Shown here: piece by piece, positions 1,132-63,900 of the stretch | Position numbering within the stretch: position 1 is the stretch's first letter | Layout: each line of letters begins with the position of its first letter | From: an uncultured Gammaproteobacteria bacterium | Lineage (GTDB): Bacteria; Patescibacteriota; Patescibacteriia; Patescibacteriales; BS150m-G62 | Length of the DNA stretch: 64,000 nucleotides | Assembly: GCA_964569045.1 (NCBI GenBank) | Contig: CAZMSR010000004.1 | Location: 6,244 to 70,243, forward strand | Reading direction: 5' to 3' | Made by a program: the position numbers and the translations under genes | The notes under the pieces: model-generated | What the model was told of the DNA's origin: nothing | The model's database searches: none | The model's input: only the letters and a program-made list of their open reading frames with translations

Positions 1132-2523
1132 TTATTTTCTATTATATATATCATCGTAACGAATAATGTCGTCTTCTTCAAGGTAGTTGCCGGTTTGCAC
1201 CTCAATAATTTCTAGATTTATTTTTCCAGGGTTTTCTAACCTATGATTGGTATACGATGGGATAAACGTACTTTCATTTTCTTTTAATATTTCTTCTTTT
1301 GATCCATTTATAATTTTAGCAACTCCTTTGACAACTATCCAGTGTTCAGCTCTGTGATAATGTGCTTGATGGCTTAATTTTTCTCCCGGGTATACTGTTA
1401 TTTTTTTGGCTTTGTGCTTGTGTCCATTCATTAGTATTTCATATTTTCCCCATGGTCGATGAATGATGAGGTTGTGTTCAAGTTCTTTTATTTTTTTTTC
1501 TTTAAGTGTTTCTACTATATTTTTAACTGAAGAGCTTTGTCCTTTTTTTTGGATAAGAATAGAATCACTAGTTTCAATAATTATTAAATCGCTTACTCCA
1601 ACAGTAGCTATGACGCGATTATTTTCAGAATGAGAAAAAATATTGTAAGAGTTATGAGAAATTAATTTTTTGTTATTTTTTATTACATCTGAAAGAGCAT
1701 CAAATGATCCAATATCAGTCCACCCAAAATCACCCTCAAAAACTATAACTTTGTTTGATTTTTCAGCTATTGCGTAATCTATTGAAATATTAGGTAATAT
1801 ATTGAAATTTTGTTTAAAATATTCATGGGATTTTTTGAATATATTGTATACATCCGGGCAGTGGAGTTTGATTTCATGAATAAATGATTTGCTGTTGAAT
1901 ATGTACATACCTGCATTCCATGTATAGTTTCCGCTTTTCATGTATTCTTCAGCATTATGTTTATTTGGTTTTTCTATAAATGCATCAACTAGGAAGTAAT
2001 TTTCTTTTTTTTGTCCTTTTTTTATATACCCATAGTTTACTTCAGGACGTGTTGGTGTGATGCCTATGGTCCCAATATTGTTGTTGATTTCATGTTTTGC
2101 AATGGATAGTAACTCCGTGTATGCTTTATTATTTTTAATATAGTGATCAGATGGCAACACAACAATGGATTCATTTGGATTAATATGCTTAACATCTGTA
2201 AGGTATTTAACGGCAAGAGTAATGGCCGGTGCTGTATTTAGACTAGATGGCTCAATTAATATATTGTTTTTGGGGAAGTTGTTATAAATATCTCTAATTT
2301 GGTTAAAAACATTAAAAAAATTTTCTTCATTGGTTATAAAAAAAATATTTTCAGCATTTATCAATTTATTTATGCGTAAAAAAGTTTCTTGGAGTAAGGA
2401 GTTTTTTGAGTATAACTTGAGAAATTGTTTTGGGTAATTTTTTCTGCTTAGTGGCCATAATCTGGTTCCAGAACCACCGCAGAGAATAATTGCTCGCATG
2501 CATTTTGTACCATGTTTAATCAA
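1132..2523 (-). CDS. manC: mannose-1-phosphate guanylyltransferase / mannose-6-phosphate isomerase (ManC/CpsB type)
   Basis: 463-aa ORF. N-terminal nucleotidyltransferase motif RAIILCGGSGTRLWPLSRKNYPKQFL and a C-terminal cupin (HRPWGKYEIL...HYHRAEHWIVVKG). The true start is probably the internal Met at 2499 (MRAIILCGG). Confidence 0.85.
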   Translation of the reverse strand: MIKHGTKCMRAIILCGGSGTRLWPLSRKNYPKQFLKLYSKNSLLQETFLRINKLINAENIFFITNEENFFNVFNQIRDIYNNFPKNNILIEPSSLNTAPAITLAVKYLTDVKHINPNESIVVLPSDHYIKNNKAYTELLSIAKHEINNNIGTIGITPTRPEVNYGYIKKGQKKENYFLVDAFIEKPNKHNAEEYMKSGNYTWNAGMYIFNSKSFIHEIKLHCPDVYNIFKKSHEYFKQNFNILPNISIDYAIAEKSNKVIVFEGDFGWTDIGSFDALSDVIKNNKKLISHNSYNIFSHSENNRVIATVGVSDLIIIETSDSILIQKKGQSSSVKNIVETLKEKKIKELEHNLIIHRPWGKYEILMNGHKHKAKKITVYPGEKLSHQAHYHRAEHWIVVKGVAKIINGSKEEILKENESTFIPSYTNHRLENPGKINLEIIEVQTGNYLEEDDIIRYDDIYNRK

Positions 2524-2530
2524 CTATTAG

Positions 2531-2570
2531 AAAAATATTTTTATCTTTAAGCGTTAATTGAGGATGGTAT
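2531..2570. repeat. solo end of the TATAC-type intergenic repeat family
   Basis: AAAAATATTTTTATCTTTAAGCGTTAATTGAGGATGGTAT is about 37/40 identical (by eye) to 5711-5750. No matching left arm was found nearby. Confidence 0.6.
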
Positions 2571-4031: not shown

Positions 4032-5582
4032 TTAAAGTGCTCTAGAATAATGATTTTTTAAAAACGTATCGTTTGTTTTTATGTCTAGTAGCTTAAGGAT
4101 TGTGTGGGCAACGTCATTTAAGGAACCGGTTGTTCTTAAAAGGCTTAGGTCTTCTTCATTTAATTCAAATTGATTTATGTTCTTTCCTTCATATTTTTTG
4201 TTGATAATTAAAAAAGGGACAGAATGATCGGTGTGTTCTGTTTCAATTGTTTCTATTAATGGATTATACATATATTCAGCATTTCCAAAAGCTGATGTTA
4301 TTAGTAGTGTGCCATTTTTTTTAATTGTTTGATTGTATATTATGCCAATTTGTTCATCAATTTTTTCTATGGCTTTAATTGTCTTATTTATATTTCCTGT
4401 ATGAGCTGCTGTGTCAATTAAGTTGTAAGTTGTAATTATTAAATGATATTTATTGGTGTTTATTTGATTAATTAGTTCTTTTGTGATTTTTATGATATTA
4501 TTTTTTTGATTTAATGTAGTGCTATTTGGTATTAGGATTGTGCTTGTGTTTTTGTTATTTTCTGAGTTTGCACCTAAAAAATACTCCATAAATGCTAGTG
4601 ACTTACTGTCTGTAATTATTAATTGATTTTTGTTGTTTTCTGAAATTAATGAATTTAGTGATAATTGTTTGTTGTTTTTTTGTGTAAAAAAATCATTGTT
4701 TACTATGTGGCCTTTTGATGTAAAAATATTTAAGTGTAAATTTTTGTCGGTTGATTTTTTTTTAAATTTATTAAATTTTTTGCTATAAATTGAATGAAGT
4801 AATTGCCTTAGTTCATATAGATTATTATTAATAAATAGCAAACAATCATTTTTTTTAATTTGTCCTATCGGTATATTTTCTTTGCTTGCTATAATTGGTG
4901 TGATCTCATTATCATTTATAGAACTGTTGTAGTTTTTTAAAATTGAGTCAATTATAGAATTAGTTAAATTACCTGAATTTTCTATTAGTGCTTTGTATGT
5001 TTTTTCTGTTCTTATATAATAGTTTTTTGTGTCTAGAGCATAAAAACCGCCAATTACACTGCAGAGTTTAATTTTATTTTTTATTATTTTCTCTAAATTT
5101 TTTATTAATTCAAAGCCTTCTTTTTTAAAGTTATTTTTGTTATTAAGAAAAATATGTAAAAATATTTTTTTTATATTTTTTTGTTTTAATATTTCTATAA
5201 ATAAAACTATGTTGGATGTAATAGAATTTTCATGCTTTGAATTTATGGAGCTAAATAAATGTATGCTTGATTTATTCTTTGCTGCATGATTTATTGTTTT
5301 TTTTATACATAGATCATTTATTATATCTGACTTTAATAAAGTGATTGGTTGATTTATCGTGTGTTCGTTATTATTCTGTCCAAGAGCTTGATAGTTGGTG
5401 ATTGTATTGTATATTGGATTGGCTGAATTTGCAGTTGATAAAGTAGTAGCAGGATATGTAGAAAATAGTGATTTAAAATTTGGTGTTTTTGCATTTAAAA
5501 TTGCATTTCCGTCGTATTTTTGAAAAATACCCCAACCTTCGATATTAAGTAGTACTAATGGCTTGGTTTGTTTGTTTGTCAT
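4032..5582 (-). CDS. degenerate paralogue of cofactor-independent phosphoglycerate mutase (probable pseudoenzyme)
   Basis: 516 aa, collinear with the neighbouring gpmI: LVLLNIEGWG vs LIILDGWG, IDTAAHTGN vs APDMIGHTGN, EHTDHSVPFLI vs HSTNQVPFII. The catalytic Ser motif GNSEAGH is replaced by ANSANPI, SDGRDS by LNNKNN, and ADHGN by SAFGN. Confidence 0.75.
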   Translation of the reverse strand: MTNKQTKPLVLLNIEGWGIFQKYDGNAILNAKTPNFKSLFSTYPATTLSTANSANPIYNTITNYQALGQNNNEHTINQPITLLKSDIINDLCIKKTINHAAKNKSSIHLFSSINSKHENSITSNIVLFIEILKQKNIKKIFLHIFLNNKNNFKKEGFELIKNLEKIIKNKIKLCSVIGGFYALDTKNYYIRTEKTYKALIENSGNLTNSIIDSILKNYNSSINDNEITPIIASKENIPIGQIKKNDCLLFINNNLYELRQLLHSIYSKKFNKFKKKSTDKNLHLNIFTSKGHIVNNDFFTQKNNKQLSLNSLISENNKNQLIITDSKSLAFMEYFLGANSENNKNTSTILIPNSTTLNQKNNIIKITKELINQINTNKYHLIITTYNLIDTAAHTGNINKTIKAIEKIDEQIGIIYNQTIKKNGTLLITSAFGNAEYMYNPLIETIETEHTDHSVPFLIINKKYEGKNINQFELNEEDLSLLRTTGSLNDVAHTILKLLDIKTNDTFLKNHYSRAL

Positions 5583-5592
5583 TTTTGTTTCA

Positions 5593-5750
5593 ATACCATT
5601 TTCTGCTAACTATCAGGAAAGAATTCCTGAGTTTCAGTTGCAAAACTAACCTCGTGCTCAACATAATTTATTATGATTCGCACGCCGACTTTTTTTTCGC
5701 ACGAAATTCAAAAATATTTTTATTTTTAAGCGTTAATTCCGGATGGTATA
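5593..5750. repeat. TATAC-type intergenic repeat, uninterrupted copy
   Basis: Arms are ATACCAT (5593-5599) and ATGGTAT (5743-5749), with additional partial pairing. The interior aligns with 19598-19742 plus 19903-19926 (CAACATAAT..., GAAATT.A.AAAT.TTTTTATT, GTTAATT..GGA.GGTATA). It fills the whole gap between gpmI and its paralogue. Confidence 0.6.
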
Positions 5751-5755
5751 ATTTT

Positions 5756-7354
5756 CTATTTAATGAGTGATCTTGCGGTCATTGTAGTTGGTTTTTTTTC
5801 GTTTAGGATGTCTAGAATTGTTGGGGCTATATTTCCTAAGTATCCATTATTTTTTAGTACTAAAGAATTTTTTAGTTTTTTATTTACAATTATAAAGGGT
5901 ACTTGGTTTGTTGAATGCTTTGTGTTAATTTCGTTAGTTTCAAGATTAATCATTTCTTCGATATTACCATGATCGGCAGTTATTACAATAGTGCCTTCCA
6001 TTTGTAAGTAAGCTTTAACTATCCGTTTTAAGCACAAATCAATTATTTCGCAGCATTTAACGCCGGCCTCTATGTTGCCAGTATGACCAATCATATCCGG
6101 AGCTGCAAAGTTTAATGTAGTGAAATCATTGTGCCATATTAAATTATTTTTTCTTTTAGGAGTTAAAGTAAAAGATTTATGTCTTAAGTTATTAATGACT
6201 ATGTTTGTGAGCTTTATTGAGCTCATTTCCGGGGTTTCTTCGTAGTGTTTGATGTTTGGCGACGGAATCACTTTCCAGGTTTCGTTTGATAAGGGAGCAT
6301 TATAACCTCCATTAAAAAAATAAGTTACGTGAGCATATTTTTCTTTTTCTGCTACATAGAGCTGCCTGTAATTTTTTAAGATAATAGGTAAAGTGTCTTT
6401 TAATTCTATGCCATGAAATGCAGTTTCTATGCTATCTAAATCCGGACCAAAATCAGTCATTGTTACAAATTTTAAGTTTTTTAATACTTTTTTTCTCTTG
6501 AATGAATTTGGATTTTTTTTATTAAACTCTTTTTGAGTGAAACATTTAGTTAGTTGTCTTGCTCGATCTGAGCGTAAATTAAAGAATATTACTGCATCAT
6601 TATTATCTACTCTGGGCAGTAGCTTTTTTTTGTTCTTCATTACAAATGGCTCTATAAATTCATCTGTAATGCCAGCATTGTAGCTTTGAGTTATGGCCGC
6701 TTGAGGGCTATTTGCCGTATTTGCTTCTCCAAGTACAAGAGCATTATATGCTAATTTAGTATTATTCCAGTTTTTTTTTCTGTCCATCCCATAGTATCTA
6801 CCCATAATTGTAGAGATTTTTTTTTCGCCTCTTAGAGAGTCTCTTTCAATTGAGCTAATAAATTTTAAAGCTCCTCTTGGTGAAGAGTCTCTTCCATCAG
6901 AGAAAAGATGCAAGTATGTTTCTTTTACGTTTTCTTTTTCAGAAAGATTAATTAGCATTTTTAAGTGCTCTGGGCTTGAGTGAGGGCTCATTTTCCCAGA
7001 AGCAAGTCCCATGATATGTAATTTGCTTTTATTTTTTTTAACATGTTTAATAGCATTTATAAAAGCATTGTTTTTGAAAAAGAGTCCTTTTTTTATTGAG
7101 CTATCAATTCTTATTGATTCTTGTTCTACTATTCTTCCTGCTCCTATATTTATATGACCTGCTTCTGAGTTTCCATCTTGACCTTTGGGCAAACCGACAT
7201 ATTTTCCATGAGCGTAGATAGTAGTATTTGGAAAAGTTTTTAGAAGATTGTCAAAAAATGGAGTTTTTGATAATGTGATAGCATTGCCTTTTGTTGGATT
7301 TGCAACTCCCCATCCATCAAGTATTATTAGAATTAGTGGTAAAACGTTTGACAT
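5756..7354 (-). CDS. gpmI: 2,3-bisphosphoglycerate-independent phosphoglycerate mutase
   Basis: 532-aa ORF with all iPGM signatures: LIILDGWG, GNSEAGHINIGAGR, HLFSDGRDSSP, APDMIGHTGN, ITADHGNIEEM. Confidence 0.93.
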   Translation of the reverse strand: MSNVLPLILIILDGWGVANPTKGNAITLSKTPFFDNLLKTFPNTTIYAHGKYVGLPKGQDGNSEAGHINIGAGRIVEQESIRIDSSIKKGLFFKNNAFINAIKHVKKNKSKLHIMGLASGKMSPHSSPEHLKMLINLSEKENVKETYLHLFSDGRDSSPRGALKFISSIERDSLRGEKKISTIMGRYYGMDRKKNWNNTKLAYNALVLGEANTANSPQAAITQSYNAGITDEFIEPFVMKNKKKLLPRVDNNDAVIFFNLRSDRARQLTKCFTQKEFNKKNPNSFKRKKVLKNLKFVTMTDFGPDLDSIETAFHGIELKDTLPIILKNYRQLYVAEKEKYAHVTYFFNGGYNAPLSNETWKVIPSPNIKHYEETPEMSSIKLTNIVINNLRHKSFTLTPKRKNNLIWHNDFTTLNFAAPDMIGHTGNIEAGVKCCEIIDLCLKRIVKAYLQMEGTIVITADHGNIEEMINLETNEINTKHSTNQVPFIIVNKKLKNSLVLKNNGYLGNIAPTILDILNEKKPTTMTARSLIK

Positions 7355-11917: not shown

Positions 11918-12065
11918 AGAACTCTCACTAAATTCGTTTTTTTATAAATTGTTAATTTTGACTAAATTTTTTTGACCTATCTTCGGGTATGTCACAGAAA
12001 GTATTCAAAAAATTTATTTTAAAATTTTCTAATTTATGAATTAAAGCGAGTTTAGCGACAGTTAT
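11918..12065. repeat. hairpin-type intergenic repeat (inverted copy of the 19744-19901 element)
   Basis: The right arm GCGAGTTTAGCGACAGTT (12046-12063) is 17/18 identical to 19883-19900. The left arm AGAACTCTCACTAAATTCG is degraded. The interior aligns over its length with the reverse complement of 19744-19901. The apex carries a c-TTCG-g tetraloop hairpin (11981-11986). Confidence 0.7.
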
Positions 12066-12138
12066 ATATTAGTTTTTTGCTATTCTTGAATGAATACTTG
12101 TAGTATTTTTAGCTAACAGTAGTTTTTTCTAGAGTTTA

Positions 12139-17981: not shown

Positions 17982-19532
17982 TTATTCAAAAGGAAGATTT
18001 GATGGAGTGTTATTTTTTGTTGATTCTAGATTTTCTGGAGATTTTTTTTGATATTTTGGAGTCTTTTCATTTGCATCGAGATCTTGGTGTGAATTATTGG
18101 GTTCTGATATTGTATTAAGCTCTGTTAATTTATTTATGTTATTTTTTTCTTCTTGACTAATTAGGTCTTGTTCGATTTCATTGAAGTTGTTGGTGGATTC
18201 GTCTTCTTTTCCGTCTTTGATTGGTAAAGTTGACGGAGCTTGCGATTTTTTAGCTGCTACTTTTTGCAAGCCAGTTGCTTTAACATATTCGCCTTGTGGA
18301 AAATTCCATAAAGTTGCGAGTTCCTCTATGCTCATTCGCTGCATGTTGCGTCCAGAAGATCCACTACGTCCTATGTAGTTTTTTGTGATTTTATTTTTTC
18401 TTGTATTTAAGCGAGATTTTTTAGGTGCAAATGATAGAGAGGTGGCAGTTTTTTTCATATCAGGTTTTAAGTTGTTTAGCTGAACATCAGCAAATTGTTT
18501 TAAAAACCCAACAAAGCCGTTGACCACTTTTGATTTATTCATTACTTCTTTTTTTGCCATGTACACAAACCTAATTTTAACTTTAAAGTTTGCTTGAGCG
18601 GCTTTTTCAGAAATTGCTTCAATTTTATTTTTTTGTATTGGTTTTAATTCTATCATTTTCAAAGATGCGTCCTCTTCTTCTTTGGTTTCTGATGGAATAT
18701 CGCTCCACATTTTATAAATAAATTCACTAAAACTATGCAAAATACCTATAAGCATGTCAATAATTAGGTCACCTAAATGTTTTTTTGATTTTATTTTCTC
18801 GTTTAATATTTCAGCAATTTCCGGTTCACTTACATCCATTTCATTAAAGCCAATTGGTTTAACAATGATTTGATACCATATTTGCTCCCCATCTCGCAAT
18901 GATCCACACAGATCCATAAGAGCTGATAACGGGTCTTTGTATTGCATTTCAGTTGGACCCATTTGATGTTCAAAGTGTTTGTAGGTTTTAATCGGGTAGG
19001 TTTCATTGTTTGCGTATATAAATTCAGTACCCCATACATCCCATGTATCGTCTGGATATTTTGTCGGCATACCTTCCGTATAATCATCTACTTCTGTTAT
19101 TTCAGCATCCGGATATTGAGAGTAAACTGATGTTTCAATTAAGTTTCTGAATTTTTCCGGAGTATGAATAAGAAATTGTGTGTATCCATTTATACTTACT
19201 ATCTCGTAACTGAAAGTGAGTTGAAATTGACCTTCGATGTACTCTTCAATTAAATTTTGTGTGCCATGTGCTCCACCTAAGTAGCTGAACATGTTTTCTA
19301 CCGCTTTTGGAGATTGCTCATTGCTTCTAGGAATATCTATTGCTAGAAGAATAAATTTAATACCGCCTTTCCATTTACCTTGCTTATTGTCCAACCATAT
19401 TTGATATGCACCAATAAACAGTACTATAACAAAAGATGGTAAGCCAAACCAAAAAAAGATATTTACGAGAGCAATATCTGGAGGTAAGTTAAAAAAATTA
19501 GTGATACCAGAAAAGTCAATGATAATATCCAT
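17982..19532 (-). CDS. hypothetical membrane-anchored protein, upstream partner of the TraD-like ATPase
   Basis: 516 aa. N-terminal TM helices (VNIFFWFGLPSFVIVLFIGAY) are followed by a large globular region (LLAIDIPRSNEQSPKAVENMF...YSQYPDAEITEVDDY) and an acidic/polar low-complexity tail. No named family was recognised. Confidence 0.6.
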   Translation of the reverse strand: MDIIIDFSGITNFFNLPPDIALVNIFFWFGLPSFVIVLFIGAYQIWLDNKQGKWKGGIKFILLAIDIPRSNEQSPKAVENMFSYLGGAHGTQNLIEEYIEGQFQLTFSYEIVSINGYTQFLIHTPEKFRNLIETSVYSQYPDAEITEVDDYTEGMPTKYPDDTWDVWGTEFIYANNETYPIKTYKHFEHQMGPTEMQYKDPLSALMDLCGSLRDGEQIWYQIIVKPIGFNEMDVSEPEIAEILNEKIKSKKHLGDLIIDMLIGILHSFSEFIYKMWSDIPSETKEEEDASLKMIELKPIQKNKIEAISEKAAQANFKVKIRFVYMAKKEVMNKSKVVNGFVGFLKQFADVQLNNLKPDMKKTATSLSFAPKKSRLNTRKNKITKNYIGRSGSSGRNMQRMSIEELATLWNFPQGEYVKATGLQKVAAKKSQAPSTLPIKDGKEDESTNNFNEIEQDLISQEEKNNINKLTELNTISEPNNSHQDLDANEKTPKYQKKSPENLESTKNNTPSNLPFE

Positions 19533-19597
19533 GAATAAATTTTAGCATAATTTTTTATCTGAACCAAGTATGTAGTTGCTGTTGCGTTGTACTTATT

Positions 19598-19926
19598 TAT
19601 ACTATTCCCAATTAAATATTTGGAAAACATTCTTGAATTTCGGCTATAAAATTCGTTTTTCGTTCAACATAATTCATTATTCATTATGCCTCACGCTCCG
19701 GCTTGTTTTTTGTTCGAAATTAAGAAATGTTTTTATTCCAAAGGGACTGTCGCCAAACTCGCTTCAATTCATAAATTTGGAAATTTTAAGATAAATTTTT
19801 TGAATAATTTTTGAGGCATATCCTAAGGTAAGCCAAAAAAATTTGAAAAAAATTTAGCCAAAATTAACAATTTATGGGTGAGGCGAGTTTGGCGACAGTC
19901 CCAAAGTGTTAATTGGGAGTGGTATA
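19598..19926. repeat. composite TATAC-type repeat carrying a nested element
   Basis: Outer arms are TATACTATTCCCAATTAA (19598-19615) and TTAATTGGGAGTGGTATA (19909-19926), 16/18 complementary. Outside the nested insert it is homologous to 5593-5750. Confidence 0.7.
19744..19901. mobile_element. MITE-like element inserted in the outer repeat, with TIRs and a target-site duplication
   Basis: Perfect 20-bp inverted repeat: GGGACTGTCGCCAAACTCGC (19743-19762) and GCGAGTTTGGCGACAGTCCC (19883-19902). It is flanked by direct CAAAG (19739-19743 and 19902-19906). The paralogous site in 5593-5750 is uninterrupted. No coding capacity. Confidence 0.65.
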
Positions 19927-21143: not shown

Positions 21144-21537
21144 ATGTTGTATTTTGAGGATAAGAATGAATATAATAAACAGTTTTATTAAACTTATTTT
21201 GTTATTTTTTTTGTTGAAATTTAATTTTTATTGTATTGCTCCGTAAGCATATCATATTTTATTATTTTGTCAACATTTTTTAATACATAAAAATAAATTG
21301 TAACTAAAAAAAGCTAATTTTAGCGAAATAATTAAGTAAATTCAGATGGGTTTATAGGTATAATACTATGCCACTATTTTTTTAATTTTTTGTATATCCT
21401 ATATATTAAAAATACAAAAAAATAGTAAATTTAATATTTTTTATATAAGTATTTTTAATTACTTTAATTTGAAATTCGTTTTTTTGTATTAAAAATACAT
21501 CAAAAATAATGCAATGTATTAAAAAATATTGATATTA

Positions 21538-28635: not shown

Positions 28636-28719
28636 TTTAATTTATGAGTTATACTCAATTGCTAAATTATTTTCGAAATTAGTTTAACAATTAAGCATAA
28701 AACTAGTTTGACAACAGTT
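28636..28719. repeat. minimal copy of the repeat family (arms back to back, plus a second-type arm)
   Basis: TATACTCAATTGCTAAATTATTTTCG (28650-28675) directly abuts AAATTAGTTTAACAATTAAGCATA (28676-28699); these match the left and right arms of 32785-32943. AAACTAGTTTGACAACAGTT (28700-28719) then resembles the GCGAGTTTAGCGACAGTT arm. Confidence 0.45.
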
Positions 28720-32784: not shown

Positions 32785-32943
32785 TATACTTAATCCCTAA
32801 ACTAATTTCGGTAATTTTTTTAAATTTTGGCTGTGGCTTTGAGAAAAAATTTGGTCTATACTACGGCATAAGCAAAATTTTTTCTCTTTGCCTCGCTCGA
32901 AATTAAAAATTTTTTTTCTAAATTAGTTTAGGGATTGAGTATA
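32785..32943. repeat. hairpin-type intergenic repeat with 26-bp TIRs
   Basis: TATACTTAATCCCTAAACTAATTTCG (32785-32810) matches the reverse complement of 32918-32943 (TATACTCAATCCCTAAACTAATTTAG) at 24/26. The apex has a c-TACG-g hairpin near 32861-32866. It is followed by GTTGGGAGTGATGTATA, which resembles the outer-type end. Confidence 0.7.
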
Positions 32944-38674: not shown

Positions 38675-38830
38675 TTGTTTTCCGTTAATTAAATTATACT
38701 AAATTCATAACCTAATATAAAATTTGAAGTTAGATTATGAGTTTAGTATAATACAGTTATTTGTGGGATAAATTTTTATGCTGTGCGTTGATATTCGTTT
38801 ACTACTTGTCATAATCACATAAGAATGTGA

Positions 38831-45034: not shown

Positions 45035-45078
45035 TAATTTTATTAAAGCATAAAATTAGCTAAAAATCAATACTTTTT

Positions 45079-45287
45079 AAAATACCTGCTCATACAACAT
45101 AATACGATTTCTTCACTAAGTGCAATATTGGCAATTTTTTTTTAGCTAAATTAAAGCTATAGTCTTACAACTCTCTTTGGTCGGTCCTAACGGACAAGTA
45201 AGACTATTATCGCTTTATTTAGCTAAAAAATTGAAACATATCGTATATTCGTTCAGAAATGTATTATATTGTATGAGCAGATATTTT
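45079..45287. repeat. 209-bp three-tier palindrome related to the repeat family
   Basis: Outer arms are 45079-45116 and 45251-45287 (AAAATACCTGCTCATACAACATAATACGATTTCT vs reverse complement AAAATATCTGCTCATACAATATAATACATTTCT). Middle arms are TTTAGCTAAATTAAAGC / GCTTTATTTAGCTAAA. Inner arms are TATAGTCTTAC / GTAAGACTAT. The apex is GTCC-TAAC-GGAC (45184-45195). Confidence 0.7.
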
Positions 45288-45515
45288 TTAAAATTTAAAG
45301 ATTTTTTTAACATCTTTTTTTATACTTATTATTTTGTATGCTCCGTAAAAAAAGGTATACGCAATGACTAATACAAATGCTCCTATTACTAAACGAGCTA
45401 AAAAGTCTACCCAGACAATTAAGACTCCTAGAATTAATAGTAGTATTCCGGAAAATATTAATGTATATATAATTCCGTTTACTTTTTTTTGAAGTGGTTT
45501 AAATAATGTAGTCAT
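45288..45515 (-). CDS. small two-TM membrane protein
   Basis: 75-aa ORF with two clear hydrophobic helices. Its stop codon abuts the palindrome. Confidence 0.45.
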   Translation of the reverse strand: MTTLFKPLQKKVNGIIYTLIFSGILLLILGVLIVWVDFLARLVIGAFVLVIAYTFFYGAYKIISIKKDVKKIFKF

Positions 45516-49801: not shown

Positions 49802-50677
49802 ATGTATTTATTTAAAACCATTATTATATCTTTATTATTTATTTTTTTTGCAAGCGTTAGTGATGTTTTTGCTTACTATGACTTAGGAAAGCCTAGTGGA
49901 TATGTGAATGATTTTGCCGGTGTTGTTAATGATGATTATGAAAAAAATATTGAAAATAAGCTAAAAGAATTTAAAAAACAAACATCAAATGAAATTTCTG
50001 TAGTAATTATTAATGATTTAAAAGGTTATGCAATTGAAAATTTTGCAGTAAAGTTATTTGAAAGTTGGCAGATTGGACAGAAGGATGAAGATAATGGAGT
50101 TTTGTTACTTGTCGCAATAGAGGATAGAAAAATGAGAATTGAGGTAGGTTATGGTTTGGAGGGTGCTTTGACTGATGCAGAGAGTTTTTTAATTATAAAT
50201 AATGTCTTAAAGCCGTCTTTTAAGAAAAATGAATTTGGGAAAGGGATTAATGATGCTATTGGTGAAATAATGTTAGCAATACAGGGAGAGTATGTGGTTG
50301 TAAATAGTGGAAGTGGTGATGCAAAAGTTGATTATAAGCAGGCTTTTTATTTTTTATTTATTTTTCCTATATGGTTGGCAAGTATTTTGGGTAGAAGTAA
50401 ATCTTGGTGGATGGGAGGAGTTGTTGGGATGGTGATTGGTGGAATTGTTTGGGTATTTTTAAGTGCTGTAACCGGGATAATAGCAATGGTGATATTAATT
50501 CCTTTAGGGTTGTGGTTTGATTATATTGTTTCAAATAATTATCAAGTTGGCAAAAGTCGAGGTAGTGTGCCTTGGTGGGCCGGTGGAGGCAGAGGCGGCG
50601 GATCTGGTTATGGTGGCGGATTTGGGGGTTTTGGGGGTGGAAGTTCGGGTGGTGGTGGATCTAGTGGGAGCTGGTGA
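49802..50677 (+). CDS. TPM-domain protein (YgcG-like) with Gly-rich tail
   Basis: 291 aa with YVNDFAGVVNDDYEKNIENKLKEFKKQTSNEISVVIINDL (TPM domain), TM helices and a C-terminal GGGRGGGSGYGGGFGGFGGGSSGGGGSSGSW tail. This is the usual partner of LemA. Confidence 0.82.
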   Translation: MYLFKTIIISLLFIFFASVSDVFAYYDLGKPSGYVNDFAGVVNDDYEKNIENKLKEFKKQTSNEISVVIINDLKGYAIENFAVKLFESWQIGQKDEDNGVLLLVAIEDRKMRIEVGYGLEGALTDAESFLIINNVLKPSFKKNEFGKGINDAIGEIMLAIQGEYVVVNSGSGDAKVDYKQAFYFLFIFPIWLASILGRSKSWWMGGVVGMVIGGIVWVFLSAVTGIIAMVILIPLGLWFDYIVSNNYQVGKSRGSVPWWAGGGRGGGSGYGGGFGGFGGGSSGGGGSSGSW

Positions 50678-50749
50678 GTGAATATTTGACTAGCTATTGT
50701 CAAATTGATTTTATTTTGATAATTTATTGTTAATTGAATAGATATTTTT

Positions 50750-50822
50750 GCGCCTATAGCTCAGCTGGTAGAGCAGCTCCCTTTTAAGGAGAAGGTCCTA
50801 GGTTCGAATCCTAGTGGGCGCA
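50750..50822 (+). tRNA. tRNA-Lys (anticodon UUU)
   Basis: Hand-folded cloverleaf. The acceptor stem is GCGCCTA/TGGGCGC. The D arm is GCTC-AGCTGGTA-GAGC. The anticodon arm is GCTCC-CTTTTAA-GGAGA with one 27:43 G-A mismatch. The T arm is CTAGG-TTCGAAT-CCTAG, and the discriminator is A. CCA is not fully encoded (the sequence reads ACCG). Confidence 0.9.
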
Positions 50823-51340
50823 CCGAGTAGTATAAGCAGGTACAAGAGTGCCTGTTTTTACGTTACATTGGTTACTTTTAGAGGTTTGAACCTGTGCTAT
50901 TTCAATATTAGCACTCTTGGAGTACTTCTTGAATTGCTCAAAGCGTAAATCCAAGCAAAAATGGGCTTTTCTATCTTCTAGTAAGGGGTTTGAACCTAAA
51001 TTAAGTAAAATGGCTTTTTTATTATTTTTATTCACAGATTCATTCTTATTGCTACCTTTAAATTTTACCACTAACTCATTTACCAACTCATAAGCTTTTG
51101 TTAATTTCTTTCTCTTTTGATCTTTAATATTTTTCAAATTTCCGATCAATTCTGCGTAGTGATTAATTATTTTTTCAAGCTTAACCCTTTTAAATAAATA
51201 CTCATCTTGAGTAATCTCTTTATTGGCTCGCATATCACCAAAACCATCTAACTTATTTTTTTTAAAGACTGCTCATAGTTTTTAATGATCTTTTCTTGTT
51301 CTTCACTATCTTCAAATTTATCTTTTAATACTCTATCCAT
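50811..51340 (-). pseudogene. C-terminal remnant of a large serine recombinase (frameshifted, no catalytic domain)
   Basis: The 140-aa ORF ends inside the tRNA-Lys 3' end. The KAILLNLGSNPLLEDRKAHFCLDLRFEQF block resembles the C-terminal region I recall from Patescibacteria large serine recombinases. A second fragment (MDRVLKDKFEDSEEQEKIIKNYEQSLKKIS, 51248-51340) joins it after a frameshift in an A8 run. No N-terminal resolvase domain is present. Confidence 0.45.
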
Positions 51341-51855: not shown

Positions 51856-52827
51856 ATGTCCCAAAATACAAAAACACTTACTAAGAACGAGGATTATAAA
51901 GCTCTACTGCAAGATATACAGAGCCTTATTAATAAAGGAAAATACAAAGCCTATAAAGCCTTTGATAATATTTTGCTACAAACAAACTGGCAGATTGGAG
52001 AACGGATTGTTAGAGAGGAATTAGAGAATAAAAATAAAACCGGCTATGGAAAACAATTAATTTCTAATTTAGCTCTAGATTTAGATATTAAATGGCAAAG
52101 ATTATATGAAATTATTAATTTTTACAAAACTTATCCAATTTTCCACTCAGTGAGTGGAAAATTAAGCCGGACCCATTATAGGCGGTTAATTGAGTTATCG
52201 GATAAAAAAGAACGAACTTTTTATCAGCAAAAAGCAATCATTGAATCTTGGAGCGTTAGAGAGCTACAAAGACAAATCAAAAGTAAACTTTTTGCCAAAA
52301 CCACCCCCCAAGAAATAGAAAAAACTTTGAGAGTTAAATTGCCAGCCATCCAAGCCCAAGAAATTTTTAAAGACACCTATAATTTTAATTTTATCGGACT
52401 TCAAACCAGTGAGAAAAATTTTGAGGATAAAATCATCAGAAACATTGAAAAATTTTTGCAAGAATTAGGAGGCGATTTTGCTTTTTTGGGCCGGCAAGTT
52501 CCAATTAAAATTGGAAATCAAGCTCATTATATAGATATGGTGCTTTTTCATAAAGGTATCCCTTGCACAGTTTTAGTAGATTTTAAAATCGGCAATCTAG
52601 ACTCTAGAGATATTGGGCAAATGAATAAATATGTCAGTTATTACCGCCAAAATCGGCAATATCCCTATGAGAGGGATGCTATCGGCTTAATAGTTTGTCG
52701 CGAAGCAGATCAAGAAGAAGTGATTTATGCTTTAAGCGGACTAGAGGAAAAGATTTTTGTGGCGAAATATAAGATTAAATTGCCAAGCGAGGATAAGATT
52801 AAAAAAATTATCCATAAGTTAACTTAA
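51856..52827 (+). CDS. DUF1016/YhcG-family PD-(D/E)xK nuclease-domain protein
   Basis: 323 aa. The N-terminal helical domain (NWQIGERIVREE...GYGKQLISNLALDL...SWSVRELQRQI) and the C-terminal core (FKDTYNFNFIGL...EDKIIRNIEKFLQELGGDFAFLGRQVPIKIG...YIDMVLFHKGIPCTVLVDFKIG...GQMNKYVSYY) are collinear with YhcG. Confidence 0.8.
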   Translation: MSQNTKTLTKNEDYKALLQDIQSLINKGKYKAYKAFDNILLQTNWQIGERIVREELENKNKTGYGKQLISNLALDLDIKWQRLYEIINFYKTYPIFHSVSGKLSRTHYRRLIELSDKKERTFYQQKAIIESWSVRELQRQIKSKLFAKTTPQEIEKTLRVKLPAIQAQEIFKDTYNFNFIGLQTSEKNFEDKIIRNIEKFLQELGGDFAFLGRQVPIKIGNQAHYIDMVLFHKGIPCTVLVDFKIGNLDSRDIGQMNKYVSYYRQNRQYPYERDAIGLIVCREADQEEVIYALSGLEEKIFVAKYKIKLPSEDKIKKIIHKLT

Positions 52828-56629: not shown

Positions 56630-59600
56630 TTGAACAATGCCTAAAAAAGCTATTAATCTAGTCAAACATCATTACAGTAATTTAACTAATAGCCATAAGC
56701 ATTTACCATGGTTGTTGGTTTTATTTATTTTTGTGAATATCTTTGCTATGTCAATGGGTTTTTTTATGTCTAAAAAAACACCATTTATACATCCTTATGC
56801 TGGAGTTGTATTGGCAAGTGGTGGTACCGCGCCTACTTTAGCGCTTGATTCAAATATAAAATTATTGGTTCATTCTGATACATCTAACGGTTCCCAGGTT
56901 TTTATTGATAGTTCTTCGTATAGTCATACTGTTGATTATTTTGATGCTATTGCTCATGAAACTGTTGTCGGTGGAGGACCAACGCCAGTATTCGGAGGTA
57001 GTTCTATTCAGTGTGTTCGTGATGGACGTTTAGAGGTTGTTGATAAAACTAATATTCAGTGGGGTGAACAGCCGTTAGTTATTGAGTCTTGGGTGAGATT
57101 TAATGATGTTGGTAATTGGGATAATTTTTTTGGTGATGGTGGTTCTGATAATGGTGGGATTTGGATTACTTTTGGTCCACCAACTGGAGCTAGATTAGAA
57201 GTTTTTCAAGGCTCATCTCGCGTTGTAGATCTCAATACTGGTGCTGATTGGAGTGGTTGGTTAGCAGATACGTGGTATCATTTTGCAGTTGTTTATGATT
57301 TAAATGGTTGGGGGATATTTAGAGATGGTGTAAGACTAAGTTATACGGCTAATACTGCGTATCCAGGTCCATCAACCACCCCACTCACTTTTGGACATTA
57401 TTTTGATGGTCATATTGATGAAGCTAGTGTATCTATTGGTACTGACAAAGGATGGATTAATGGCTTTACTCCCCCGGCATCTCCTTATTCTGCGTCTCCT
57501 ACAATATCCGGCACAGAAGAAACCGGTGCTACTTTAACCGGAAATTATACATACCAAGACGCTGAAAGTGATCCTGAAGGAACTTCATTATTTCGTTGGT
57601 TAAGTTCAGATACACTAGACGGCACTTATACTCCAATTAGTGGAGCAACTAGCCAAACTTATGTGGTTGACCAAGCATATCTTGGAAAATATCTTAAATT
57701 TGAAGTTACTCCGGTTTCTACCATATCCCCAATTACAGGTAATGCATATTTAAGTGCAGCAACCGGTGCAATAGCGCAAGGAGAGGTGTCACCAACTGCA
57801 ACTAGTTTAAGCATTAGCGGGACCACAGCAATAGGTGAAACTTTAACCGGTAATTATACTTATTCAGATTTAAATGGAGATACAGAGAGTGGATCAGAAT
57901 ATCAATGGTATCGCGCTGCTACAGCTGAAGGTGCATATTCAGCAATTGGCGGAGCAATTTCGCAAACTTATGATTTAGTAATGGCTGATTATCAAAAGTA
58001 CCTTAAATTTGAAGTTACTCCTGTAGCCGATACTGCCCCTACAACAGGAAATTCAGCTACATCTAGTGCTAGTGCGCAGGTTATTGGGACAATGCCAATA
58101 TTAATGCAAAATGGAATTGATTCAAATACAAAATTATTACTACATAATGATGGAAATGGAACAGCCTTTGTAGACGATTCTAATAATGGACATTCTATTG
58201 CTGCTCAAGGTAGTGCTACCCAAAGTGCTACCCAAAGTAAATTTGGTGGGAAAAGTATTTATTTTGATGGTGGGGCTAATGGAGTATCAATCCCGGCTAG
58301 TACTGATTTTGCTTTTGGCACTAATGATTTTACTATTGATTTTTGGATGTATTTTAGTCAAGTTAGAGAAAATCAATATTTTTATGATATTGGCTCAAAT
58401 CAAGAGCAATTTAGACTTTATCAAGGTTATTGGGATTTATACAATTCATCAGGTGGTCAAATTTTTCATATTGCAAATACTCCTAGTGCTGCTTCATGGC
58501 ATCATATTGCCTTGGTTCGCAGTGGTAATACTTTTGAGTTATTTTTAGATGGAACATCTTTAGGTTCAAGTACATATACTGGTACATATGGTAGTAGTGC
58601 CAATACTTTTATGATTGGAAATTATGGCGGAGTAATAGCAGGCGTTGCCTTAGATGGCTATGTAGATGAATTTAGAATTTCTAAAGGAGTTGCGCGCTGG
58701 ACTGAAAATTTTACTTTGCCAACACAAATGTATACAGAACAAGTTTATCTAACAGGAACACAAGAAGTCGGCCAAACTTTAACTGGAAATTACACATTTT
58801 ATGATGCAGAATCTGATTCTGAAGGAGTATCTTTATATCAATGGTATCGAGCAGATGGTGCCGAAGGTGCGTATTCTGTTATTAGCGGGGCAACAAATAT
58901 AACTTATGCTTTAACTTCTAGTGATGCAGCTAAATTTATTAAATTTGAAGTAACACCTGTTTCAACTATAGCCCCAACTATAGGTATAACAGCAACGTCT
59001 AGTGCTACAATCGAGGTTGGTGCTCCGCCAACTGCAACTAGTCTAAGTATTATCGGCACAACAACAGTTGGTGAAACCTTAACCGGAAATTATACATATT
59101 TTGATGCTAATTCTGATTCTGAGGCCACTTCACTTTACCAATGGTATCGAGCTGATACAGCTGAAGGTACATATGCTGCTATTAGCGGAGCAACTTCACA
59201 AGCTTATGTTGCTACTTCTACTGATTTAAATAAATACCTTAAATTTGAAGTTACTCCTGTGGCTGATACTGCCCCAACTATTGGTGAGGTAGCTACAAGT
59301 ACGTCAGTTGGTCCTATAATTGAAGTCGCAGTAGCTCCTGTGGCAACTAATGTAAGTATTAATGGGAACGCTGTAGTTGGTCAGAGTTTATCTGGTGCTT
59401 ATACCTATTCTGATGAAAATAATGATGCTGAAAATTTATCAACATTTAGATGGTTAAGGTCTGATGCTGTTGATGGTAGTTATGTTGCGATATCCGGAGC
59501 TACAAGTTTAAGTTATACTTTAGTAAGTGCTGATGAAAGTAAATACATAAAATTTGAAGTAATACCTAAAGCGGTTAATGCCCCAACTAATGGAGATGTT

Positions 59601-59651
59601 GTGCTTAGTACTGCGTCAGATCAAATTGTATCAACCCCTGTGTCTAATTTA
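56630..59651 (+). repeat. tandem duplication, copy 1 (period 4349 bp)
   Basis: Identical to 60979-64000 at every position I compared except 56642 T vs 60991 C. The ORF track gives identical alternate-frame peptides at 58186 and 62535. Confidence 0.9.
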
Positions 59652-60860
59652 GTTCCTCAAACTACTGGAGTTAGTGTTAGTGGTTCAAAATTAATTGGAT
59701 CAGTGTTAACCGGTGGATACATATACTCTGATTATGAGAATGATATTGAAGGAAGCTCTATTTTTAGATGGCTAAAAGCAGATACTGAGGATGGTGTTTT
59801 TGTGGCAATCGGCAGTGCTACTGCCGGCACTTATACTTTGGTTGGTGGTGATGTTAATAAATATTTAAAATTTGAAGTTACTCCTGTGGCAAGCACCGGT
59901 TCAACAACAGGCGAAACGATTCTATCAGATGCTTATGGTCAGATTTATGATCCGGTTACGGTAAAACAGGATTTTACTGCTAGTGCCTCAACTACAATTG
60001 CTATAGCTGATACAAGTTCGCCGGGTACAGCCCAATTGCCAACAGACACTATTGTTATTGAATTAAAAGATGATCAAAAATTAGAATTTAATGATGCTGT
60101 TGAGGCAGATGTAAGTGCAACTAGCACAACAGTATCTACACCATCGGGAGATGTTTCAATTCAAGATGCTATAGCTGATGTTATGGGAACTGCATTTACA
60201 GACACAGAAGTAGATAGTGTTCAATTAGAGTCGGGTATACAAGGAGAGCCAATTGTGATTGCTCAAGGAGGTTTGCAAGTAGAAATTCCTGATGAAACAG
60301 AAATATTTGCTCCAGCTAGTTGGGATGGTACTATTGCTCCACCTGTTATTGTTGAATCAGCTCAAATTCCCGGGCAATCAACCGGTTCTGTTATTTCTAT
60401 GGGGGCTTCCGGTATATCACTTATATTTACAAAGCCTGCTAAAATAGTTATCCCTTCTTCTACCGGTAATCCATTTTATACTGTTAATGGAACTGATTGG
60501 ACAGAGATTACAAATCAATGTAATACAGCTGAAGGTGGTGGCTATAGCTTTCCTGATGAATGTTATTTTAAGACAGGTGATCAAACAATTGTATGGACAT
60601 ATCATTTTACGCAATTTGGAATGGGGTCGACGAATTTAAATTTACATCTGTTTAGTAACTATTTTGGAGGAGTTGCTACTACAACTGTTTTTGGTGGTGA
60701 CCCTGAAGGTGATGGTGACTCTCCATTGAAAATAAGGAAAGAAGGTGTAACCTATAGAATACCAGTTGTGGCTACATCTAGTCCTTATGCATCAAATTGG
60801 AGAATATTAATAGATGGTGTTGTTAGAGCTATTAAAATGTTTGGATGGAGGGTTGATTAA
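56637..60860 (+). CDS. giant N-terminally anchored surface protein: two LamG-like domains, six ~95-aa beta-repeats and a unique C-terminal domain
   Basis: 1407-aa ORF. A TM helix spans aa 23-44. The LamG/concanavalin-like blocks are FGGSSIQCVRDG...WYHFAVVYD...FDGHIDEASVS and FGGKSIYFDGG...DFTIDFWMYF...WHHIALVRSGNTFELFLDG...DGYVDEFRISKG. There are six repeats of G.TLTGNYTY.D...E..S.[FY][RQ]W[LY]R......Y..I.GAT...Y.......KY[LI]KFEVTPV. Confidence 0.9.
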   Translation: MPKKAINLVKHHYSNLTNSHKHLPWLLVLFIFVNIFAMSMGFFMSKKTPFIHPYAGVVLASGGTAPTLALDSNIKLLVHSDTSNGSQVFIDSSSYSHTVDYFDAIAHETVVGGGPTPVFGGSSIQCVRDGRLEVVDKTNIQWGEQPLVIESWVRFNDVGNWDNFFGDGGSDNGGIWITFGPPTGARLEVFQGSSRVVDLNTGADWSGWLADTWYHFAVVYDLNGWGIFRDGVRLSYTANTAYPGPSTTPLTFGHYFDGHIDEASVSIGTDKGWINGFTPPASPYSASPTISGTEETGATLTGNYTYQDAESDPEGTSLFRWLSSDTLDGTYTPISGATSQTYVVDQAYLGKYLKFEVTPVSTISPITGNAYLSAATGAIAQGEVSPTATSLSISGTTAIGETLTGNYTYSDLNGDTESGSEYQWYRAATAEGAYSAIGGAISQTYDLVMADYQKYLKFEVTPVADTAPTTGNSATSSASAQVIGTMPILMQNGIDSNTKLLLHNDGNGTAFVDDSNNGHSIAAQGSATQSATQSKFGGKSIYFDGGANGVSIPASTDFAFGTNDFTIDFWMYFSQVRENQYFYDIGSNQEQFRLYQGYWDLYNSSGGQIFHIANTPSAASWHHIALVRSGNTFELFLDGTSLGSSTYTGTYGSSANTFMIGNYGGVIAGVALDGYVDEFRISKGVARWTENFTLPTQMYTEQVYLTGTQEVGQTLTGNYTFYDAESDSEGVSLYQWYRADGAEGAYSVISGATNITYALTSSDAAKFIKFEVTPVSTIAPTIGITATSSATIEVGAPPTATSLSIIGTTTVGETLTGNYTYFDANSDSEATSLYQWYRADTAEGTYAAISGATSQAYVATSTDLNKYLKFEVTPVADTAPTIGEVATSTSVGPIIEVAVAPVATNVSINGNAVVGQSLSGAYTYSDENNDAENLSTFRWLRSDAVDGSYVAISGATSLSYTLVSADESKYIKFEVIPKAVNAPTNGDVVLSTASDQIVSTPVSNLVPQTTGVSVSGSKLIGSVLTGGYIYSDYENDIEGSSIFRWLKADTEDGVFVAIGSATAGTYTLVGGDVNKYLKFEVTPVASTGSTTGETILSDAYGQIYDPVTVKQDFTASASTTIAIADTSSPGTAQLPTDTIVIELKDDQKLEFNDAVEADVSATSTTVSTPSGDVSIQDAIADVMGTAFTDTEVDSVQLESGIQGEPIVIAQGGLQVEIPDETEIFAPASWDGTIAPPVIVESAQIPGQSTGSVISMGASGISLIFTKPAKIVIPSSTGNPFYTVNGTDWTEITNQCNTAEGGGYSFPDECYFKTGDQTIVWTYHFTQFGMGSTNLNLHLFSNYFGGVATTTVFGGDPEGDGDSPLKIRKEGVTYRIPVVATSSPYASNWRILIDGVVRAIKMFGWRVD

Positions 60861-60978: not shown

Positions 60979-63900
60979 TTGAACAATGCCCAAAAAAGCT
61001 ATTAATCTAGTCAAACATCATTACAGTAATTTAACTAATAGCCATAAGCATTTACCATGGTTGTTGGTTTTATTTATTTTTGTGAATATCTTTGCTATGT
61101 CAATGGGTTTTTTTATGTCTAAAAAAACACCATTTATACATCCTTATGCTGGAGTTGTATTGGCAAGTGGTGGTACCGCGCCTACTTTAGCGCTTGATTC
61201 AAATATAAAATTATTGGTTCATTCTGATACATCTAACGGTTCCCAGGTTTTTATTGATAGTTCTTCGTATAGTCATACTGTTGATTATTTTGATGCTATT
61301 GCTCATGAAACTGTTGTCGGTGGAGGACCAACGCCAGTATTCGGAGGTAGTTCTATTCAGTGTGTTCGTGATGGACGTTTAGAGGTTGTTGATAAAACTA
61401 ATATTCAGTGGGGTGAACAGCCGTTAGTTATTGAGTCTTGGGTGAGATTTAATGATGTTGGTAATTGGGATAATTTTTTTGGTGATGGTGGTTCTGATAA
61501 TGGTGGGATTTGGATTACTTTTGGTCCACCAACTGGAGCTAGATTAGAAGTTTTTCAAGGCTCATCTCGCGTTGTAGATCTCAATACTGGTGCTGATTGG
61601 AGTGGTTGGTTAGCAGATACGTGGTATCATTTTGCAGTTGTTTATGATTTAAATGGTTGGGGGATATTTAGAGATGGTGTAAGACTAAGTTATACGGCTA
61701 ATACTGCGTATCCAGGTCCATCAACCACCCCACTCACTTTTGGACATTATTTTGATGGTCATATTGATGAAGCTAGTGTATCTATTGGTACTGACAAAGG
61801 ATGGATTAATGGCTTTACTCCCCCGGCATCTCCTTATTCTGCGTCTCCTACAATATCCGGCACAGAAGAAACCGGTGCTACTTTAACCGGAAATTATACA
61901 TACCAAGACGCTGAAAGTGATCCTGAAGGAACTTCATTATTTCGTTGGTTAAGTTCAGATACACTAGACGGCACTTATACTCCAATTAGTGGAGCAACTA
62001 GCCAAACTTATGTGGTTGACCAAGCATATCTTGGAAAATATCTTAAATTTGAAGTTACTCCGGTTTCTACCATATCCCCAATTACAGGTAATGCATATTT
62101 AAGTGCAGCAACCGGTGCAATAGCGCAAGGAGAGGTGTCACCAACTGCAACTAGTTTAAGCATTAGCGGGACCACAGCAATAGGTGAAACTTTAACCGGT
62201 AATTATACTTATTCAGATTTAAATGGAGATACAGAGAGTGGATCAGAATATCAATGGTATCGCGCTGCTACAGCTGAAGGTGCATATTCAGCAATTGGCG
62301 GAGCAATTTCGCAAACTTATGATTTAGTAATGGCTGATTATCAAAAGTACCTTAAATTTGAAGTTACTCCTGTAGCCGATACTGCCCCTACAACAGGAAA
62401 TTCAGCTACATCTAGTGCTAGTGCGCAGGTTATTGGGACAATGCCAATATTAATGCAAAATGGAATTGATTCAAATACAAAATTATTACTACATAATGAT
62501 GGAAATGGAACAGCCTTTGTAGACGATTCTAATAATGGACATTCTATTGCTGCTCAAGGTAGTGCTACCCAAAGTGCTACCCAAAGTAAATTTGGTGGGA
62601 AAAGTATTTATTTTGATGGTGGGGCTAATGGAGTATCAATCCCGGCTAGTACTGATTTTGCTTTTGGCACTAATGATTTTACTATTGATTTTTGGATGTA
62701 TTTTAGTCAAGTTAGAGAAAATCAATATTTTTATGATATTGGCTCAAATCAAGAGCAATTTAGACTTTATCAAGGTTATTGGGATTTATACAATTCATCA
62801 GGTGGTCAAATTTTTCATATTGCAAATACTCCTAGTGCTGCTTCATGGCATCATATTGCCTTGGTTCGCAGTGGTAATACTTTTGAGTTATTTTTAGATG
62901 GAACATCTTTAGGTTCAAGTACATATACTGGTACATATGGTAGTAGTGCCAATACTTTTATGATTGGAAATTATGGCGGAGTAATAGCAGGCGTTGCCTT
63001 AGATGGCTATGTAGATGAATTTAGAATTTCTAAAGGAGTTGCGCGCTGGACTGAAAATTTTACTTTGCCAACACAAATGTATACAGAACAAGTTTATCTA
63101 ACAGGAACACAAGAAGTCGGCCAAACTTTAACTGGAAATTACACATTTTATGATGCAGAATCTGATTCTGAAGGAGTATCTTTATATCAATGGTATCGAG
63201 CAGATGGTGCCGAAGGTGCGTATTCTGTTATTAGCGGGGCAACAAATATAACTTATGCTTTAACTTCTAGTGATGCAGCTAAATTTATTAAATTTGAAGT
63301 AACACCTGTTTCAACTATAGCCCCAACTATAGGTATAACAGCAACGTCTAGTGCTACAATCGAGGTTGGTGCTCCGCCAACTGCAACTAGTCTAAGTATT
63401 ATCGGCACAACAACAGTTGGTGAAACCTTAACCGGAAATTATACATATTTTGATGCTAATTCTGATTCTGAGGCCACTTCACTTTACCAATGGTATCGAG
63501 CTGATACAGCTGAAGGTACATATGCTGCTATTAGCGGAGCAACTTCACAAGCTTATGTTGCTACTTCTACTGATTTAAATAAATACCTTAAATTTGAAGT
63601 TACTCCTGTGGCTGATACTGCCCCAACTATTGGTGAGGTAGCTACAAGTACGTCAGTTGGTCCTATAATTGAAGTCGCAGTAGCTCCTGTGGCAACTAAT
63701 GTAAGTATTAATGGGAACGCTGTAGTTGGTCAGAGTTTATCTGGTGCTTATACCTATTCTGATGAAAATAATGATGCTGAAAATTTATCAACATTTAGAT
63801 GGTTAAGGTCTGATGCTGTTGATGGTAGTTATGTTGCGATATCCGGAGCTACAAGTTTAAGTTATACTTTAGTAAGTGCTGATGAAAGTAAATACATAAA

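Follow-up and report, generated by a model that had tools for sequence, protein, structure and literature searches.

Results

Genomic context of the nested repeat

The window, by which we mean the entire 64-kb stretch of DNA analyzed here, has a GC content of 30% and represents chromosomal DNA of Patescibacteria (CPR) near Falkowbacteria. The best named homologues of its genes belong to Falkowbacteria and the Patescibacteria group, and its housekeeping genes include those for enolase, PGK, iPGM, DnaB, RF-1, GroEL, RecR and L21. At least six copies of hairpin-forming repeats were found in the window, falling into two or three families and one of them nested (Table 1). All of these repeats are intergenic, and they occupy tandem, divergent and convergent spacers. 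The nested copy, which has a sigma-factor-like gene on one side and a DUF8128 gene on the other, consists of an outer repeat that is interrupted by an inner element.

The interval between the outer element and the DUF8128 gene contains a sigma-70-like site (TTGGTT-N17-TAAAAT, 19539-19567, minus strand). Only 6 nt separate the end of its -10 box from the ATG at 19532, so the DUF8128 mRNA may be leaderless. A second such site, TTGACT-N17-TAATAT upstream of the TrwB-like gene, is kept among relatives. Elsewhere in the window, two giant genes in tandem (56637-60860 and 60987-64000, the latter running off the window; spacing 4349 bp) encode 1407 and 1409 aa with Laminin_G_3 and Ig-like repeats. Within the window their first ~3 kb are essentially identical, and in L120 the complete copies share 98% identity; this pair of surface-protein genes looks like a recent tandem duplication or gene conversion. 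A YhcG/DUF1016 PDDEXK-nuclease gene (51856-52827) runs counter to most genes and lies at a distance of about 1 kb from tRNA-Lys, in a region that may be a small acquired island.

Table 1. Repeat features of the window (positions are those of the 64-kb stretch)
Feature	Position	Strand	Remarks
Outer element, left portion up to the insertion point	19598-19742	+	Terminus (TA)TACTATTCCCAATTAA; aligns with 5593-5750 and two copies in L111
Direct repeat CAAAG, left	19739-19743	+	Last base is the first base of the left TIR
Inner element	19743-19902	+	160 bp, non-coding; imperfect palindrome over its full length
Left TIR, GGGACTGTCGCCAAACTCGC	19743-19762	+	Exact 20-mer match
Right TIR	19883-19902	-	Perfect complement of the left TIR
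Direct repeat CAAAG, right	19902-19906	+	First base is the last base of the right TIR
Outer element, right portion	19903-19926	+	Terminus TTAATTGGGAGTGGTA(TA)
Junction predicted for an insert-free allele at 19.7 kb			Would join TTATTCCAAAG directly to TGTTAATT
Uninterrupted outer paralogue ("empty site")	5593-5750	+	Fills the spacer between two iPGM-like genes
Partial outer copy, right half only	2486-2570	+	Just upstream of the ManC start
Second, older inner copy	about 11918-12066	-	Inverted; 11-bp deletion; one arm decayed
Related hairpin family "fam32"	32785-32943	+	159 bp; termini TATACTTAATCCCTAAACTAATTT / AAATTAGTTTAGGGATTGAGTATA; hairpin z = -10.4
Short hairpin	28650-28700	+	Arms resemble fam32 termini; weak support (E = 0.5)

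The outer repeat and its uninterrupted relatives

The homology between 19598-19926 and the uninterrupted repeat at 5593-5750 that had been proposed in the initial annotation was confirmed by pairwise alignment. After removal of 19744-19906, the two sequences align from end to end with 113 of 158 positions identical (71.5%) and without a gap at the junction, and the alignment score of 55 compares with 3.4 +/- 1.8 in shuffled sequences. Direct comparison of the 19.7-kb and 5.7-kb repeats with nhmmer gave an E value of 4e-13, and the internal blocks said to be common to both copies, TCAACATAATT and CGAAATT.A.AAAT.TTTTTATT, were recovered. Two further uninterrupted members of the outer family were found in the related genome L111 (4875-5030 and 17695-17850), and within the partial outer copy of the window the 40 nt from 2531 to 2570 are 93% identical to 5710-5749.

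At the aligned junction, the 19.7-kb repeat minus 163 bp reads TTATTCCAAAGTGTTAATT, compared with TTATTTTTAAGCGTTAATT in 5593-5750, while the two L111 copies read TTATTCCTAGGTGTTAG and TTTTTACACAGAGTGATAA at the insertion point. The string TTATTCC-AAAG-TGTTAA is unbroken in all three uninterrupted members. It had been considered that CAAAG might belong to the inverted-repeat consensus of the inner element. Since the junction is contiguous in the three uninterrupted copies, CAAAG is part of the target instead.

The 5.7-kb copy is all that separates two adjacent paralogues of the iPGM-type phosphoglycerate mutase (4032-5582 and 5756-7354), the downstream one of which scores far lower on Pfam models (iPGM_N, 92 versus 220 bits). 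A role of the outer element as a common 5' leader or promoter of paralogous genes was discarded, because the 516-aa ORFs downstream of both full copies encode unrelated proteins and because the copies, which oppose the direction of the genes in the window, follow it in L111.

The inner element is a non-coding hairpin with perfect termini

The insert had been described as 158 bp long (19744-19901) with perfect 20-bp inverted termini. These termini are indeed present, but the boundaries were 1 nt off, and the perfect 20-bp arms delimit an element of 160 bp. The terminal 20-mer occurs exactly twice in the window, once at either end of the element in opposite orientation, and no match is expected by chance (100 shuffles). 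Complementarity of the arms is 96% over 24 nt, with imperfect pairing out to about 35 bp, and the element matches its own reverse strand at an nhmmer E value of 6e-15. As RNA it is predicted to fold into one long hairpin of -66.6 kcal/mol (z = -12.1), and as DNA into a hairpin of -47 kcal/mol (z = -10.7). No ORF is contained in the element, and all ORFs of at least 20 aa that touch it cross its borders. Its length and lack of coding capacity agree with those of MITEs (about 50-500 bp, non-coding), as do its terminal inverted repeats (TIRs).

The CAAAG direct repeats reported on both sides of the insert were found as well. What could not be retained is the combination of a full 20-bp TIR with a full 5-bp target duplication, since the repeats share one base per side with the TIRs and this base would be counted twice. 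Consistent counts are a 20-bp TIR with AAA, a 19-bp TIR with CAAAG, or an asymmetric AAAG. Under every reading of the ends, the 19.7-kb locus contains 163 bp of additional DNA. The flanks read ...CCAAA followed by GGG on the left and CCC followed by AAAGT on the right and are not TA. At this base composition, the chance of a 5-nt flank match with three registers allowed is about 0.007. Owing to the overlap between direct repeats and TIRs, the length of the duplication is ambiguous between 3 and 5 bp.

Independent assemblies contain the same nested structure

The nested structure is base-for-base identical in the ENA (SUTE22-1), JGI and Logan assemblies, which derive from different samples. Two of the Logan contigs terminate within the inner hairpin, which is expected of a repeat, and hairpin repeats are known to disturb assemblers, so that an assembly artefact or a chance similarity might be considered as the source of the nested pattern. 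Given the identity of the complete structure across independent assemblies, which argues against an artefact, and the absence of any terminus match in shuffled sequences, this explanation is highly improbable. The only difference between the window and the ENA scaffold_784 concerns 50668-50743, just upstream of tRNA-Lys (50750-50824), where the scaffold has 10 N followed by 183 different bases, which is an assembly gap and not a biological indel.

Among 13 contigs from several samples that carry the neighboring gene, no insert-free allele of the 19.7-kb locus was found, and current activity is therefore unproven. We also considered the closest relative, L108 (71% protein identity), as an orthologous empty site. 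Its spacer of 297 bp is close to the value of 465 - 163, but the sequences are not alignable and the spacer is free of any element, and this candidate was rejected. No outer or fam32 copy was found in 20 kb of L108.

A second inner copy marks a recurrent insertion site

The presence of a second inner copy in opposite orientation with a decayed arm, as noted in the initial annotation, was verified (nhmmer E = 1e-15; 80% identity). Its neighbors are a PilT/T2SSE-type ATPase gene and a 108-aa gene, and no flanking duplication can be recognized at this decayed copy. The spacer that contains it measures 238 bp in the window; its counterparts are 6 bp long in L108 and L109 and 1 bp long in L111. In the related L122, whose orthologue is 60% identical, the same spacer harbors an unrelated full-length hairpin of ~185 bp (18410-18592, z = -9.3) with the termini CTGCTCACTATATCTGCAT. 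Since this spacer is occupied by the inner copy in one case and by a different hairpin in another, and is only 1-6 bp long in two other relatives, it is a recurrent insertion site. Both occupied and empty sites, as expected for MITEs, are thus represented, namely by the three paralogous outer copies and by the 1-6 bp syntenic spacer in L108 and L111.

The same termini occur in an unrelated bacterium

An exact-terminus scan of a metagenome collection returned one true relative of the inner element, L107 (OBEQ010106431.1, groundwater metagenome, 40% GC). This element is likewise 160 bp long and matches the terminus at 20/20 positions at one end and at 19/20 at the other, while its core has diverged; between the window and L107, the termini are more strongly conserved than the core. 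The host is a different organism, and relatives of its E1-beta gene lie on contigs of 41-42% GC that are rich in radical-SAM genes. These relatives (L126-L130) contain no further copies and are not syntenic downstream of the E1-beta gene, so there is no empty site with which L107 could be compared.

The L107 element is flanked on both sides by a direct CTGAG. With three inner-type copies known, flanking direct repeats are therefore CAAAG in the window, CTGAG in L107 and none at 12 kb. Judged from these sequences, the window and L107 copies would jointly fit a duplication of 3 bp (termini GGG / GGGG) or of 5 bp (GG / GGG), and agreement on either length requires that the termini differ by one G:C pair. 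Conserved ends combined with a variable core are the pattern expected if a protein recognizes the ends, and the L107 copy, whose ends and length are identical to those of the window copy while its core has diverged, is the strongest single argument that such recognition may take place.

Several weaker matches were rejected. A weak terminus-like match in L111 (11542-11562, 5 edits) is regarded as a chance match, as no hairpin is formed by the 216 nt around it (z = 0.1). A further 101 single matches to the 17-mer ACTGTCGCYAAACTCGC in genome contigs of random taxa are all due to chance, as none is accompanied by a second arm or by a match to an HMM built from the alignment of all ten element copies. 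This HMM gave 0 matches in 742 kb of unrelated genomes.

Related and unrelated hairpins

The termini of the fam32 family begin with TATACTTAATCCC..., and homologues of the window copy were found at L112 10943-11101 and L111 4614-4780, sites that are not orthologous to it. The inner-family HMM matches fam32 copies at E values of 2e-7 to 1e-3 (2e-7 for the window copy), which relates the two families through their cores. Family HMMs gave no significant cross-hit between the outer family and the inner or fam32 families; in a MAFFT alignment, inspection by eye reveals no more than short boxes, and homology of the outer family to the other two is not claimed. Two boxes, AATTTTGGCT and CGCTCGAAATT, recur across families. 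The short hairpin at 28650-28700 may be an internally deleted fam32 copy. All readable outer and fam32 copies have the form TA-TAC...GTA-TA, and these flanks could be TA duplications; as TA is self-complementary, such a duplication looks the same as an extension of the TIR.

In L111 (4614-5030), a single spacer between PfkB and glycosyltransferase genes holds both a fam32 and an outer copy, separated by about 95 bp. The window also contains an intergenic inverted repeat at 45074-45292 (32-nt arms at 88% complementarity, 155 nt between them). This repeat is flanked by a 552-aa ORF on one side and, on the other, by a small ORF that precedes GroEL; its sequence is not related to any of the three families described above. 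Two palindromic intergenic stretches were noted in addition, one at 38686-38759 (37-nt arms at 78%), which begins ...TATACTAAATTC and recalls the TATAC termini, and one at 21277-21495 (33-nt arms at 79%, 153 nt between them).

RNA families, promoters and orientation

The strong folds, the strictly intergenic positions and the recurrence of boxes across families would also suit functional structured RNAs or cis-regulatory units such as terminators, sRNAs or leaders, which spread by duplication or recombination, with the apparent insertion being a recombination at CAAAG microhomology. The high similarity of fam32 copies (nhmmer 88-94 bits) between genomes in which an orthologous protein is 66% identical points in the same direction. 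At the gathering score of Rfam 15, tRNA-Lys is the sole match in the whole window, and a permissive scan returned only generic models of long plant miRNA-precursor hairpins at sub-threshold scores (at most 44 bits versus thresholds of 80-230). Promoter-like sites in a consensus scan are not in excess over shuffled sequence, and none was found at the element ends; outward promoters at these ends (...TGGTATAAT) can be read by eye, but the scan count is no higher than in shuffles and they are not claimed. The one terminator-like site within an element, at 5613-5630, falls in the outer copy at 5.7 kb and is no more than a consensus match.

The distribution of the copies likewise speaks against this explanation. 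The two inner copies of the window are oppositely oriented to each other, both inner and outer copies occur in either orientation relative to flanking genes, and the spacers they occupy are of all three types. Outer and fam32 copies in related genomes are at non-orthologous sites, and the orthologous spacers of relatives have no copies. Non-orthologous sites together with both orientations relative to genes argue against a fixed regulatory hairpin, and the perfect 20-bp ends with a diverged core in L107 are better explained by protein recognition of the ends. A functional RNA or cis-regulatory unit is thus an unlikely origin of these repeats.

Search for a mobilizing enzyme

No transposase gene or domain was detected among the ORFs of the 64-kb window or among the genes listed for related loci totaling about 150 kb, and no Y1 gene (TnpA or RAYT) is present among the window ORFs. 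The exact-terminus scan of metagenome and viral contigs yielded L107 only and no autonomous IS or transposon with the same termini. Apart from L107, no full-length element with these termini was found in the metagenome, viral, plasmid and phage collections, and the inner element shows no similarity to plasmid and phage records.

An alternative is movement as single-stranded hairpins by an HUH/Y1 enzyme, either REPIN/RAYT-like or PATE-like and derived from IS200/IS605. Such a route would be compatible with the fact that every element is a nearly full-length hairpin (z = -12, -10 and -9), with a core sequence common to families that differ in their termini (inner HMM versus fam32, E = 2e-7) and with the failure to find a DDE transposase. 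IS200/IS605 elements, on the other hand, have subterminal hairpins rather than perfect TIRs and are not known to duplicate their target, whereas perfect termini and direct repeats at two independent insertions are observed here, the termini are conserved above the core between the window and L107, and no Y1 gene was found in the window. We consider the single-stranded route improbable.

A further reading that we regard as doubtful is that the hairpin repeats form one ~160-bp lineage across Patescibacteria and other groundwater bacteria, with a common core (AATTTTGGCT, CGCTCGAAATT) and exchanged termini (GGGACTGTCGCC... versus TATACTCAAT...). As no transposase was found at any locus examined, a single lineage would mean that the mobilizing enzyme has escaped recognition or that the core is maintained in streamlined genomes by some host function, for instance as structured RNA or DNA.

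Discussion

Our results support the view that, at 19598-19926, one MITE-like element has inserted into another. The colinearity of the interrupted repeat with its uninterrupted relatives, the perfect termini with their direct repeats, and the presence or absence of copies at syntenic sites were all observed directly, and the inner 160-bp element is probably a non-autonomous TIR transposon (MITE) that would be mobilized in trans. In this respect the proposal of the initial annotation that the family is mobile, and not a conserved regulatory hairpin, is supported. As for its being recently mobile, the perfect termini are the single observation that points to it, because neither an insert-free allele nor a transposase was found.

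We propose the following course of events. A transposase encoded elsewhere, presumably of the DDE type, would bind the conserved ~20-bp termini, and the inner element would have inserted at a staggered cut, the repair of which would duplicate 3-5 bp of the target (AAA to CAAAG). The target would have been a resident copy of a second, older inverted-repeat element of ~160 bp in the spacer between the sigma-factor-like and DUF8128 genes. We infer that the direct repeats originate from such a cut, that the insertion is evolutionarily recent and that it has no role in regulating the neighboring genes.

MITEs and nested MITE insertions are already well known, and what is new is this family and its host group. 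The inner element resembles the bacterial MITEs Correia/NEMIS of Neisseria, RUP of Streptococcus, Nezha of cyanobacteria and MITEAba12, which are non-coding, intergenic and 100-300 bp long, carry TIRs with a short target duplication, form a long hairpin, are present in several copies per genome and are mobilized in trans. It differs from them in that it shares no sequence similarity with them and resides in Patescibacteria, and from Correia also in that its flanks are not TA. For Stowaway and IS630/Tc1-mariner MITEs, the TA likeness is limited to the outer and fam32 families, as the flanks of the inner element are AAA/CAAAG and CTGAG.

Tn3-derived TIMEs are described as having ends that are identical between distant copies, a less conserved core, a conserved length, and 5-6-bp duplications in AT-rich targets (PMC4133298). 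The inner element is similar in its ends, core and length; it is compatible with a 5-bp duplication (3 bp is equally possible), begins with GGG(G) and has arms that pair imperfectly to about 35 bp. TIMEs are 262 bp long, usually single-copy, and have 38-bp IRs that match Tn3-family transposons, whereas the inner element is perfect for 20 bp only. No Tn3-type transposase or resolvase was found near it. The IRs of the Tn3 family typically end in ...TAAG, which the end of the inner element lacks. The likeness to TIMEs and Tn3 is treated as an analogy only.

REPINs/BIMEs and PATEs are also hairpin-forming, intergenic and repeated. REPs are units of about 20-40 nt that are accompanied by a RAYT gene, and PATEs are not known to have terminal inverted repeats or target duplications. 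The inner element differs from both, as no RAYT or Y1 gene was seen and TIRs and direct repeats are present. In the literature searched, no match to the terminus string and no account of MITEs in Patescibacteria were found.

The understanding of MITEs in general is not changed by these findings. Their practical value concerns the annotation and assembly of CPR genomes, since hairpin elements of this kind break short-read assemblies, leaving contigs that end inside them, and mark spacers that tolerate insertion; the terminus GGGACTGTCGCCAAACTCGC moreover provides a defined sequence with which a partner transposase can be sought. Patescibacteria (CPR) have small, streamlined genomes whose mobile DNA is poorly described, and the presence of copies at differing sites in related genomes indicates that miniature transposons are gained and lost there.
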